Of a DNA stretch of 64,000 nucleotides, positions 6,205-9,965 are shown piece by piece. The stretch is from assembly GCA_021163505.1 (NCBI GenBank), contig JAGGVE010000034.1, positions 11,726 to 75,725 on the forward strand, in the 5' to 3' direction. The stretch comes from Candidatus Iainarchaeum sp. GTDB lineage: Archaea; Iainarchaeota; Iainarchaeia; Iainarchaeales; DTGL01. The notes under the pieces are model-generated. The model saw only the letters and a list, made by a program, of their open reading frames with translations. It made no database searches and was not told the origin of the DNA. The position numbers and the translations under genes are program-made. Within the stretch, counting starts at the first letter, position 1. Each line of letters opens with the position of its first letter.

Positions 6205-7005
6205 ATGCTAAATGCTATGTATGGCTCTCTGAAAGCGGTTTTGAAAAAACCGCATGGCCTAATAATTCCACTTGTCGCATCGCTCTTGAGCGCGTATTTT
6301 TTCATACTGTTTATTCGCACAATTATAGAAATATTGGTTGATAATGCATTGTATGCAAATACTTTGCAGGAAAGTGTTTTTGCAACACTGATGTTTATTG
6401 CGAAGGTAAAATCAGCAGAGTTGCTAAAGATCTTTGCACTAGCGCTTGCCAACTCATGGGTCGGCATTTTTATTGGGATTTATTATTGTAAGTTCATAGC
6501 TTTGGTTGAAAAAGCCAGTACTTTCAGCAAGGCGGTTAAGTTTGCATTTAAATCATTATGGCATTCAATAGCTCTGCTCATAATCAGTATTATCTTCTTT
6601 GCAGCATTTGGTGTTGGTGCTTACATAATAATGTGGCTTTTCGGATTCAATTTTTTGCTGAGCTTTTTTGCACTACTCTTTCTCGGCTTGCTTATGGCCA
6701 TAGCTGGTTTGCGCCTTTTTATGTTTGCTCTGCCTGCGCTTGCATACGAAAAAATAAATGCAAGGAAAGCACTGCAGAGAAGCTGGCATTTTACTGAAGA
6801 GTTCTTCTGGCAATCATTGGCTTTAGCAATTGTTCTTACTTTTGTAGTCTTCCTTATATTCGCGCTTCAGCAATATATTCTGAACTTCTTTGACGATACG
6901 CTTGCAATACTAATAATTTATTCTCTTTTTAATAGCTTTGTAGTAGCATTTTCCTTTGGCACTCTCAGCATATACTATGCGGAGAGCCGCACTAAAGCTA
7001 AATGA
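6205..7005 (+). CDS. polytopic membrane protein (at least 6 predicted TM helices)
   Basis: Long hydrophobic stretches throughout. Stop overlaps the start region of the downstream SMC-like gene, suggesting translational coupling. Confidence 0.5.
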   Translation: MLNAMYGSLKAVLKKPHGLIIPLVASLLSAYFFILFIRTIIEILVDNALYANTLQESVFATLMFIAKVKSAELLKIFALALANSWVGIFIGIYYCKFIALVEKASTFSKAVKFAFKSLWHSIALLIISIIFFAAFGVGAYIIMWLFGFNFLLSFFALLFLGLLMAIAGLRLFMFALPALAYEKINARKALQRSWHFTEEFFWQSLALAIVLTFVVFLIFALQQYILNFFDDTLAILIIYSLFNSFVVAFSFGTLSIYYAESRTKAK

Positions 7006-9965
7006 CAGCGATTCCCATGATGGAGCTTAAAGAGCTAAAGCTTAAGAACTTCAAATCATTTAAAAAGGCGAAGATACCCTTTAAGAGAGGATTCACCGTT
7101 ATTGTAGGCCCCAACGGCTCTGGAAAAAGCAACATATTAGATGCTTTGCTCTTTGTGCTTGGCGAAACTTCAATGAAAAGTTTGCGAGCATCACGCATAA
7201 CAGACCTAATAAACAACGCTACGCAAGAGAATTATGGCAAAGTTGAACTTAAAATAAAGAAAGGTAAAGAAACAACAACGATAAGCAGGACAATTGATAG
7301 GAAAGGCAAAAGCATATGCAGAATAAACGATGAACGAAAATCACTAAGCGAGCTAACTTCACTTGTTTCTGAATTGGGGTTAAGGAACAGCTACAACTTT
7401 GTTGCACAAGGGGATGTAACACGGATTATTGAAATGAGTCCTGAACAAAGAAGAACTATAATCGATGAGCTTGCAGGCATAAAGGAGTTTGAGCTCAAGC
7501 GCGAAGAAGCTCAAAAAAATCTAGATAAAGTCAATGAAAAGATAAAAGATGTGAATCTAGTTTTACACGAGAGATTGGCAAGGCTTGAAGAGCTCGAAAA
7601 GGAACGCAAACAGGCTGAGCGCTATAAAGAGCTAACTGAGCGGAAGGATTCAATAAAAGCAACCATTCTGAAGAAAGAGATAGATGCTATTAATGCGGAA
7701 GTGAAAAAGGCAAAAGAAAAACTAAAGAAGAATCGCGAAGCTCTCGAAAAAAAGGAGAAAGAAGCAGAGAAAATAAAGAAGAAAATTGCTGATTTAGAAA
7801 ACAAAAACGAAGCGTTATCCAACAAAATCCTTGCTGAGCAAGAGAAAGCGTTTGAGGAATTTGGCAAACAGATAGAAGAGCTAAAAGCAGAGGATAGAGT
7901 TTTAGAGGAGCAGATACTCTCACATAGAACAATGCTCAGCAAACTTGAACAACAAGAGAATGAGCTTGCTGAAGAACTGAAGGCTCTGCTCGAGCAAAAG
8001 AGAGCTGAACGAAAAAGCGTTAGCGCTTATGAAAAAGAACTTGGCGAGGTGGAAAAAGAAAGCTTACGCCTTGAGCAAAGGCTCAGAGCAGTTGAGGAAG
8101 AAGCAAAAGATGTAGAGGAAAGAATTGCAAGCATAGAAGCTGAAATTAGCAAAATAGAAGCAAACAGAGAAACACTTCAAGAAAAACTTATGGAAAAACG
8201 CGCTGAGCATAGTGAAATCAAAAAAGAGAACGAGATGCGCCAGCTAAGAATAAAAGAGCTCAAAGAAAAAATTCAGAGTTTAAAAGATGAGCAAGAGAAA
8301 TTTGCTAAGTTGAAAACACATATAAAACTCCTAGAAAGTAAGAATTTGGAGGCAATGCTAAAGCAACTAAAAGAGCGCGAGAACGCGCTTATAGGAAAAG
8401 AGAAAGAGCTTTTAGCGAGAATTGCGCAAACAAGAGAGGCCATTGAAAAGCTAAAAAAGGCAAGCTCGTTGTGCCCTGTATGCGAAAGCACTTTAAACGA
8501 GCGTAAAAAAAAGATACTAATTGAAAAAAAGAATAATGAAATAAAACGCTTCGAAGCACAACACAAAGACATTATAAAAAGACTGAAAGAGATCACTGAG
8601 CAAATTGGTGCGGTGGAAAAAGAGATTGAAAAGCTAAATGAATTAAAAAGAGAGTATGCGCGCTATGAAAATGTAGCCAATGAGCTCAAAGAGCTTGCCA
8701 ACGCGTTAGAAAACGAGAAAGCCCAGATAAAAGATTTGGGAGGCTTAGAAAGAGAGATTGGAAATATTGAAAAAGAGCTTGAAAGGCTCAAAGCTGAAAA
8801 AGAATTAAAGCTTGCTGAGCTCAAAGAGCTTGAGGTAAGTGAGGAACTTTCGCTTAGAACAAAGGCAACAGAACTAAAGCACAGGAAAGAATTCCTGAAA
8901 AATAATATAAAACATGCCAAACAAAACATTGAGAAGCTCGAAAGCGATGCAAGCAGAATTAGGGCACGTATAGAATCTATTGAAAAGGAGAAAGAAGATA
9001 TTGCAAAGGAGATTGAGGAAAAAAGTGAAAAGATTGAAAAGCTCAAAGAAAAATTGCTGAAGCTTGAAACTGAAAAAACCAAAAAGAGCGAATCATTAAG
9101 AGAACTAATAAATAAAAAGGAAAGCATCGCTACCCAAACTGAAAAGATGAGGCATAGCTTAGATTCTTTCGAATCCGAGAAAAGGTTGCTTGAAAGAGAA
9201 ATAAATGAAGCGAGAGTCGATATAGGAAAGAATGAGGTAAGGCTAGCTGACCTGGAGGAGGAACTGAAAAGTTTTCAGGGAGTTAGGTTCTTGATGGACC
9301 TCAGCCTGAAAGAGCTAAAGAAAGAGTTGCCAAAGATTGAAAAGGAATTAGGATCAATAGGCCCTGTAAATCTGCGAGCAGCAGAATCGATAAAGGAAGA
9401 AGAAGAATCACTGCTTGAGGTGAAAGAAAAGATTCAAAAGCTCGAGCGAGAGAGAGATGCAGTAATAGATATGATAAATAAGATAGAAGTGAAGAAAAAG
9501 GAGGTATTTATGAATTGCTTTAATTCTATAAGGAAAAACTTTGCAGAGATGTTTTATAATTTCTTTGAAGGCAATGCAGAATTAAAACTTACTGACTATG
9601 AAGATCCGAGCAATGCCGGACTGATCATAGAAGCAAAGTATAAAGGAAAGGCGTTACAGTCGATTGATAGTATGAGCGGTGGTGAGAAATCACTTACAGC
9701 ATTGGCGTTCATATTTGCAATACTGCTATATAAGCCTGCTCCGCTCTATGTTTTTGATGAAGCAGATGCTGCATTAGATGAGATAAACTCAGCAAAGGTC
9801 GCAAAAGCAATAAAGGAGTTCTCAAAGAAAGCGCAGATAATTGCAATAACTCACAACCATAATATAATAAGAGATGCTGACCAAATAATTGGGGTTACTC
9901 TGGCAAAGGACAAGTCAAGCGTTATTGGGCTGGACCTCAAGCAGAAGCTCTTGGAGAACGCTTAG
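7002..9965 (+). CDS. SMC-family ABC ATPase with a central CxxC zinc-hook instead of a hinge (SMC-like/Rad50-like hybrid)
   Basis: N-terminal head '[39 protein letters not shown]...[10 protein letters not shown]' has Walker A and an SMC-type Q-loop region. C-terminal head '[36 protein letters not shown]...IIAITHN' carries the SMC signature, Walker B and D-loop. About 650 aa of K/E-rich coiled coil lie between them, with 'CPVC' at aa 491-494 (nt 8472-8483), exactly mid-protein. Likely true start is MELKELKL at about 7020. Confidence 0.75.
   Translation: [987 protein letters not shown]

Follow-up and report, generated by a model that had tools for sequence, protein, structure and literature searches.

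The window analysed here, a 64-kb stretch of contig JAGGVE010000034.1 (positions 11,726 to 75,725 of the forward strand; assembly GCA_021163505.1, Candidatus Iainarchaeum sp.), carries a gene for a 987-aa ATPase in which SMC-type heads and arms are combined with a predicted Rad50-type zinc hook at the place of the hinge. Iainarchaeota are a DPANN phylum of tiny archaea. We consider it probable that this gene is the SMC orthologue of its Iainarchaeota lineage and that its hook replaces the hinge, the protein most likely dimerising through a shared Zn2+ ion and being otherwise Smc-like. The gene directly upstream encodes a membrane protein with six transmembrane (6-TM) segments, which is a candidate SMC partner. 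A first-pass annotation of the window, made from the sequence alone, had proposed either a condensin homologue with a non-canonical dimerisation module or an uncharacterised membrane-associated system. Our results support the former reading, as judged from the heads, the hook, the missing hinge, the missing mre11 and the genomic slot of the gene.

A predicted zinc hook at the apex of the arms

The 987-aa protein contains four cysteines and a single CxxC motif, CPVC at aa 491–494. This motif lies at 0.497 of the protein length, which agrees with the first-pass claim of a lone CPVC at the midpoint. A Pfam scan of the whole protein gave no match to SMC_hinge (PF06470), and it matched Rad50_zn_hook (PF04423) at aa 472–519; the coiled-coil middle thus lacks a detectable hinge, as had been claimed, and the profile check suggested at that time came out in favour of the hook. 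The hook match scored 22.9 bits in the full protein, just under the cutoff of 24.3 bits, and 27.1 bits, above the cutoff, when the isolated apex was scanned. PF06470 was likewise missing from the precomputed Pfam annotation of all matches from the hook clade, while it was present in hinge SMCs. The apex measures 45–61 aa vs. 157–204 aa in the same alignment columns of hinge SMCs; with the apex taken as 45 aa, the hinge forms compared have 157–182 aa.

To follow the motif we used a set of 116 non-intein homologues and, for conservation, an alignment of 64 sequences. In this alignment C491, P492 and C494 were the sole invariant positions between aa 174 and 750, that is, among approximately 570 arm residues. 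The information content was 2.4 bits in the hook block vs. approximately 1.4 bits in the arms, and the conserved pattern, L-K-x-x-A-x-C-P-x-C-[ED]-[ST]-x-L, includes flanking leucine and lysine. Of the 116 homologues, 76 have CP[VITLF]C midway along the protein, down to approximately 33% identity. Given this recurrence and the invariant C/P/C in 64 sequences, the CPxC motif is not a chance occurrence. Rad50_zn_hook was matched by every apex segment tested (33/33).

The apex also recovered Rad50 hooks in searches of the PDB. A profile built from apex segments detected two structures of the Pyrococcus furiosus Rad50 hook, 1L8D (E = 8.7e-13) and 6ZFF (E = 1.8e-12), as well as the hook of human RAD50 (5GOX, E = 0.008), the next unrelated chain being found at 0.002. 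The top matches of the 100-aa apex among PDB sequences were again 1L8D and 6ZFF. When the apex of the window protein ([19 protein letters not shown]) was aligned with the hook (AIEeLKKAkgkCPVCgreL), the likeness (AIExLKKAxxxCPVCxxxL) reached beyond the cysteines. For the central 200 aa the best model was archaeal Rad50 near its hook (48 bits; positions 347–546 of 878), and there was essentially no score for this segment on SMC models. These matches support an apex of the Rad50 hook type, homologous in sequence to the hook of P. furiosus Rad50.

SMC-type heads and canonical arms

Among NCBIfam models the whole protein scored highest with SMC_prok_A (TIGR02169; curated equivalog cutoff 729.4 bits), reaching 572.8 bits; the match came in two pieces, with the hinge portion of the model left out. 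The competing models remained far behind, with 185.7 bits for the best Rad50 (cutoff 700), 152.6 for ASRP (cutoff 300) and 81.2 for Rkd4. The same was seen for each head half alone: the N-terminal half gave 200 bits with SMC_prok_A vs. 76 with the best Rad50 and 40 with ASRP, the C-terminal half gave 211 bits vs. 40 with Rad50 and 29 with ASRP, and no other family exceeded the 80 bits of RecF. SMC_N (Pfam) spans aa 9–971 with 141.7 bits. The ATPase residues were invariant in the 64-sequence alignment (G36/N38/G41/K42, Q136/G137, S892–E895, D919/E920/D922/D926 and H951).

A phmmer search of PDB sequences with the whole protein gave 317 bits for the Smc head 5XEI and 72 bits for the best Rad50 head, 3AUX. 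For comparison of folds we used an AlphaFold2 (AF2) model of the protein, computed from the 64-sequence alignment (mean pLDDT 79.8). In Foldseek, Smc heads ranked on top: 4I99 with a TM-score (TMt) of 0.87 at a root-mean-square deviation of 2.7 Å, 5XNS with 0.79, and 5XEI, which includes head, coiled coil and joint, with 0.67. The first Rad50 entry appeared at rank 10. The heads are closer to SMC than to other members of the SMC superfamily, and the earlier description of them as SMC-like and not Rad50-like is borne out by profile scores, PDB sequence search and fold search alike.

In the AF2 model the arm helices are continuous and CPVC sits in the sole non-helical turn between them (aa 487–499). 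The arms show paired interruptions and, near the head, a low-confidence joint around aa 226–228 on the N-terminal strand and the loop of aa 741–768 on the C-terminal strand. The two arm strands measure 300 and 295 aa, compared with 298–320 and 309–318 aa in hinge-bearing DPANN SMCs. As arm lengths match and apex sizes do not, the difference is confined to the apex.

The hook clade and its derivatives

In the homologue search, approximately 90 clusters of 770–1040 aa without PF06470 preceded the first hinge-bearing SMC. Most of these are labelled Ca. Diapherotrites, i.e., Iainarchaeota. In a search of genome contigs with the SMC, the nearest record and only true relative was a Ca. Iainarchaeum metagenome-assembled genome at 95% identity, and the remaining matches were bacterial SMC fragments. 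A neighbour-joining tree of head-domain columns only separated hook and cysteine-less (Cys-less) forms from hinge forms with a bootstrap of 100/100; monophyly of the hook forms alone was recovered in 0/100 replicates.

The Cys-less relatives (n = 15, approximately 905–928 aa) fall within the hook clade and have a short helical apex that is neither hook nor hinge (P0082 at L005:10001-12787, P0049, P0050, P0055, P0059, P0070, P0073-75, P0079, P0083-86 and P0094; P and L handles denote the proteins and loci compared). They keep the upstream membrane gene. Since they nest among the hook forms, we regard them as secondary derivatives of these. A second hinge-less and Cys-less pair, P0104 (L023:10001-12805) and P0102, of 934 and 932 aa, is placed by the tree among the hinge SMCs and has no upstream membrane gene. 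This position within the hinge clade points to a separate, independent loss, and hinge loss appears to have occurred more than once in DPANN.

Two further variants were observed. A short-arm hook class of 772–807 aa has arm strands of approximately 190–215 aa instead of approximately 300 aa (P0093 at L006:10001-12319, P0037, P0052, P0061, P0063, P0064 and P0089); the step of approximately 100 aa recalls the periodic arm-length constraint of engineered Smc (PMC5344682). In several hook-clade SMC genes from AR10-like genomes we found inteins with a LAGLIDADG homing endonuclease, which bring the proteins to 1206–1540 aa (P0042 at L001:10001-14617, P0067, P0087, P0090 and P0078).

Genomic slot and the upstream membrane protein

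Hook-clade loci share the gene order GlmS, GlmM, a helix-turn-helix (HTH)/S-layer-like gene, the membrane gene, SMC and a convergent Lon_C gene, with ribosomal P1/L10/L1/L11, Spt5, SecE and FtsZ further downstream. A hinge SMC from the same phylum (P0103, GCA_013154035.1) occupies this slot too, followed by a convergent Lon_C gene and then by L10/L1/L11, Spt5, SecE and FtsZ. The shared slot favours a hinge exchanged in situ over a paralogue.

The 266-aa upstream protein is a 6-TM protein by hydropathy, as the first-pass annotation had described it, and its AF2 model is all-helical and confident (pLDDT 94.2, pTM 0.90). A single-sequence search with it returned 5 relatives only, while an exhaustive profile search among 1.8 billion proteins gave 110 representative clusters, nearly all full-length. 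A loop motif is conserved in the family, E-x-x-x-K-x-A-L-x-x-S-W-x-F-T; by the positive-inside rule this most conserved loop and both termini would face the cytoplasm. The window protein itself scored 19.4 bits with GPDPase_memb (PF10110; cutoff 29.6). As 49 of 62 family members matched PF10110 at E<=0.01 (best 9.8e-12), we place the family by sequence as a probable divergent branch, or subfamily, of the GPDPase_memb superfamily. Fold analogues in the PDB were weak, with TM-scores (TMq) of 0.48–0.55 for Pns1/CTL1 and 0.47 for CysZ, all at E>0.01.

Homologues of 19–37% identity and the same topology precede the SMC gene in L001, L002, L003, L005 and L006. L005 encodes a Cys-less SMC and L006 a short hook SMC at which all other synteny is lost, and both keep the membrane gene. 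Altogether, the gene was directly upstream of SMC in 9/9 hook-clade loci (the window, L001, L002, L003, L005, L006, L007, L021 and L022), and a local profile search found the family within 10 kb in 0/3 control loci (L004, L023 and L024; two with a hinge SMC, one independently hinge-less). The conservation check called for by the first-pass annotation was thus positive. Starting from two distant members of the membrane family (P0200, P0160), the next downstream gene was again a hook-clade SMC head; two of the nine loci were reached in this way.

The annotation had also suggested translational coupling, with the stop of the membrane gene overlapping the SMC start. SMC homologues begin with M-x-x-L-K-x-L-x-L-K-N-F, whose equivalent here is Met6. 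The conserved start is therefore probably the ATG at 7017, giving a 982-aa product and an 11-nt gap to the membrane gene; the ATGA overlap needs the first ATG, at 7002. Gaps at other loci were 3–60 nt. With the conserved start 15 nt downstream of the first ATG, the case for coupling through overlap is weak, and we rejected the overlap as a conserved feature given that the first ATG is not conserved. Tight operon linkage of the two genes stands; coupling by stop/start overlap does not.

For other partners, every window open reading frame (ORF) of >=110 aa was scanned with Pfam or NCBIfam, at relaxed thresholds for unannotated ORFs. ScpA, ScpB, Mre11, Rad50, NurA or a second SMC were found neither in the window nor within 10 kb at 12 related loci, hinge-SMC loci included, and mre11/sbcD was adjacent neither in the window nor in 9 related loci. 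The first-pass statement that mre11/sbcD, a herA/nurA operon and scpA/scpB are missing nearby is confirmed for the window and for 10 kb around the related loci. A hinge detected by profile, or an mre11 adjacent in relatives, had been named there as evidence against its reading; we found neither.

Gene features and neighbouring genes

Coordinates of the three genes and of the SMC subregions are given in Table 1. The three ORFs (266, 987 and 814 aa) have exactly the coordinates and strands reported in the first pass.

Table 1. Positions in the window of the SMC-type gene, its predicted subregions and the two adjacent genes.
Feature	Position	Strand	Remarks
6-TM membrane protein gene	6205..7005	+	266 aa; ORF; same strand, directly upstream of SMC
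SMC-type ATPase, putative zinc hook replacing hinge	7002..9965	+	987 aa from first ATG
N-terminal SMC head half	7002..7511	+	aa 1-170; Walker A G36-K42; Q-loop Q136-G137 invariant
N-terminal coiled-coil arm strand	7512..8459	+	aa 171-486; AF2 helices 160-365, 368-446, 449-486
Predicted Rad50-type zinc-hook region	8415..8558	+	aa 472-519; bounds from Pfam Rad50_zn_hook match
CPVC (Cys491-Pro492-Val493-Cys494), presumed Zn ligands at arm tip	8472..8483	+	C, P and C invariant in 64/64
C-terminal coiled-coil arm strand	8499..9431	+	aa 500-810; AF2 helices 500-552, 555-574, 580-610, 614-740, 769-785
C-terminal SMC head half	9432..9962	+	aa 811-987; signature S892-G-G-E895
C-terminal head half, further invariant motifs			Walker B/D-loop D919-E920-x-D922-A-x-L-D926; H-loop H951
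Convergent Lon_C protein gene	9937-12381	-	814 aa; ORF

The convergent gene, whose 3′ end overlaps that of SMC by 29 nt, encodes a protein that has a hydrophobic segment at its N terminus and a Lon_C (S16) protease domain lacking an AAA+ module. A second TM segment lies around aa 620–645, and the C-terminal coiled coil carries a basic tail. The Pfam match to Lon_C confirms the Lon-like protein noticed earlier. The convergent arrangement is conserved in the phylum at SMC genes of the hook and the hinge type alike; we considered the Lon-like protein as part of a hook-specific system and rejected this, as it flanks the hinge SMC in L004 too.

On the other side, a 317-aa protein (5155-6108, plus strand) has an S_layer_C-like domain and, at its N terminus, a winged-helix/ArsR-like HTH; its gene, which lies just before the membrane gene, keeps this position in L002 and L003. 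At the start of the window (105-1256, plus strand) lies the C-terminal part, with PepSY and TrmB domains, of a HerA-like DUF87 ATPase, which is 859–971 aa long in the syntenic L002 and L003 and occurs without accompanying NurA, Mre11 or Rad50. Four consecutive ORFs at 30887-34077 (plus strand; 261, 238, 218 and 217 aa) gave no Pfam or NCBIfam match and none is kleisin-like; the second is coiled-coil, the third has a TM segment and is rich in cysteine, and the fourth is helical and highly basic. Near the end of the window we found a 281-aa GGDEF diguanylate-cyclase protein (62167-63012, plus strand; 74 bits), followed by an HTH_3 protein (63068-63799). Cyclic di-GMP signalling domains are uncommon in archaea.

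Proposed function and alternative explanations

We propose that a hinge of approximately 160–180 aa was swapped for a Rad50-type zinc hook of approximately 45 aa. By analogy with Rad50 hooks, two protomers would share one Zn2+ via four cysteines and so form a constitutive apex dimer, and ATP-driven engagement and disengagement of the heads would act on chromosomal DNA as in Smc-ScpA(B); zinc binding and function of the hook SMC are both analogies of this kind. The most parsimonious origin would be the acquisition of a rad50 apex segment by the smc gene in the clade ancestor, after which the cysteines would have been lost in several sublineages and the arms shortened by approximately 100 aa per strand in others. 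The genes of SMC and the 6-TM protein make up a conserved two-gene unit; the two would be co-expressed and probably cooperate, e.g., with SMC localised or tethered at the membrane. A bolder version, which we hold to be rather doubtful, makes the pair a clade-specific membrane-anchored SMC machine. If this were true, the heads or neck of SMC would be bound by the 6-TM protein, which might replace or join a kleisin and would link the organisation or segregation of the chromosome to the envelope; dispensable hinge functions would then explain the hinge-to-hook swap and the later hook loss.

Several points weigh against the hook-for-hinge reading and its membrane partner. The SMC_prok_A score is below the equivalog cutoff, which is expected with the hinge absent. 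The likeness to the hook is possibly convergent, as coiled-coil flanks hold little information; we infer zinc binding and dimerisation of the predicted hook, and the AF2 model is that of a monomer. Some lineages do without the cysteines, as the 15 Cys-less relatives show, and this makes it harder to claim an essential role for apex dimerisation. Scans of the window and of 10 kb around SMC at the 12 loci detected no kleisin (ScpA), and the same holds for those loci that have hinge-bearing DPANN SMCs. The head tree is a neighbour-joining tree computed without Rad50 or ASRP outgroups, and the link between membrane protein and SMC is one of gene order only. Paralogy is conceivable too, the gene content seen being that of the 64-kb window and of 20-kb loci.

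The last point leads to the explanation that the hook protein is an extra, membrane-associated SMC paralogue with a new function, a canonical SMC being encoded elsewhere in the genome. That the membrane gene is strictly tied in position to the hook clade, that its family is restricted to 110 clusters and that hinge-bearing SMCs labelled 'Ca. Diapherotrites' exist would all fit with this. We nevertheless find it unlikely, as a related genome has a hinge SMC in the same slot, the conservation of the heads and the length of the arms are entirely those of a canonical SMC, and neither the window nor any 20-kb locus contained a second SMC. Clearly less probable still is that CPxC is a convergent turn, either a redox-active or disulfide dicysteine or a structural hairpin cap. 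The nested relatives without cysteines, and the inflation of profile scores by coiled-coil flanks, speak for such a turn; yet all 33 apex segments match Rad50_zn_hook, the two Rad50 hook structures stand at approximately 1e-12 against 0.002 for the next best chain, identity extends beyond the cysteines, and C-P-x-C-[ED]-[ST]-x-L shows little or no variation. A Rad50/SbcC, ordinary or divergent, that works with Mre11 in double-strand-break repair would account for the midpoint hook and for the weak Rad50 match of 185.7 bits. The heads, on the other hand, score 2.6- to 5-fold higher on SMC models, and sequence and fold searches of the PDB rank Smc heads first. In archaea rad50 and mre11 are normally adjacent, whereas no mre11/sbcD was adjacent in the window or in 9 related loci, and we give this explanation hardly any credence.

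Archaeal SMC relatives with a zinc hook are in fact known, namely the ASRPs (ClsN/coalescin, Sph1/2; PMC9389158), and the protein gives weak matches to ASRP and Rkd4, which would suit a protein of the ASRP or arcadin-4 type. This is very improbable: the ASRP score of 152.6 bits is far under its cutoff and under the 572.8 bits for SMC_prok_A, the head halves score 40 and 29 bits against 200 and 211, the arms have SMC-like length and joint, and by position the gene is orthologous to a hinge SMC. Finally, the ATPase could belong to anti-phage defence (Lamassu LmuB, Wadjet JetC, MADS or a PARIS/Septu-type system), where LmuB hooks are kept or lost (PMC12663957). PADLOC returned generic head matches only, mad3 with 181.8 bits (head only) and LmuB with 106.8 bits, both far below the SMC score; it matched neither the membrane protein nor a partner or effector (LmuA, JetA/B/D). 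The ATPase gene is surrounded by housekeeping genes whose order is conserved across the phylum (GlmS/GlmM, ribosomal proteins, FtsZ), a setting that does not resemble mobile defence islands. Membership in a defence system was rejected on these grounds, and its probability is in our view close to negligible.

Comparison with known systems

The SMC superfamily has been divided into hinge SMCs, which organise chromosomes, and CxxC SMCs of the Rad50/SbcC type, which act in repair and defence (PMC12663957). The hinge is treated as a feature that defines SMC and matters for its function, and its replaceability has so far been shown by engineered chimeras only (PMC5344682, PMC6969161). In the literature on SMC, zinc hooks and DPANN taxa, the Krishnan/Aravind ABC-ATPase classification not being covered, we found no description of a natural hook-bearing SMC. 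DPANN SMCs have been counted as canonical, with the hook not mentioned (Yoshinaga and Inagaki, PMC8665677), and most hook SMCs are annotated only as 'AAA family ATPase' because they miss the SMC equivalog cutoff.

With prokaryotic Smc of Smc-ScpA(B) (TIGR02169/TIGR02168; 4I99, 5XEI, 5XNS), the window protein shares the sequence and fold of the heads, the ATPase motifs, arms of approximately 300 aa, the joint near the head and the genomic slot. It differs in having a 45-aa CPxC hook in place of the PF06470 hinge, in the upstream 6-TM gene and in its score below the equivalog cutoff. With the Rad50/SbcC hook (PF04423; 1L8D, 6ZFF, 5GOX) it has in common a C-P-x-C turn, flanked by conserved hydrophobic and basic residues, where the strands of an antiparallel coiled coil meet at the tip; here, the hook sits on SMC-type heads with no Mre11/SbcD adjacent. 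ASRPs are likewise archaeal members of the SMC superfamily with zinc-hook dimerisation, a property predicted for the hook SMC, but they have divergent heads and are shorter (the NF045487 profile has 593 positions), and the window protein scores 153 bits with ASRP vs. 573 with SMC. Natural loss of the hinge is known from 'hinge-less' SMCs of ocean actinobacteria, which are explicitly without CXXC (Sussfeld et al. 2025, PMC12153180); these bacterial proteins resemble the Cys-less derivatives described here and not the hook form. Loss of the hook has been documented for short LmuB proteins in the 2025 Lamassu paper (PMC12663957).

The closest parallel is an engineered one. In B. subtilis Smc(Zh) the Smc hinge was replaced by the P. 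furiosus Rad50 hook, and the chimera 'supported normal growth', from which the authors concluded that chromosome segregation does not depend on how the dimerisation domain is folded (Burmann et al. 2017, PMC5344682); the converse exchange in Rad50 is the Rad50–MukB hinge swap (Tatebe et al., PMC6969161). Smc(Zh) and the Iainarchaeota protein are built alike, with a Rad50-type hook instead of the hinge on the heads and arms of an SMC, and the natural apex is closest to the very hook that was used, 1L8D. Whereas Smc(Zh) was engineered, the Iainarchaeota form is natural, ancient and diversified (hooked in 76/116 homologues), with short-arm and Cys-less derivatives. If our reading is correct, the clade would show a natural hinge-to-hook swap that was kept across a diversified lineage and was followed by Cys-less apices and shorter arms. 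It would thus offer a natural series for asking what the dimerisation module and the arm length of SMC must do, and would point to the strictly co-located 6-TM protein as a possible new partner of SMC in organisms in which no kleisin was seen nearby.

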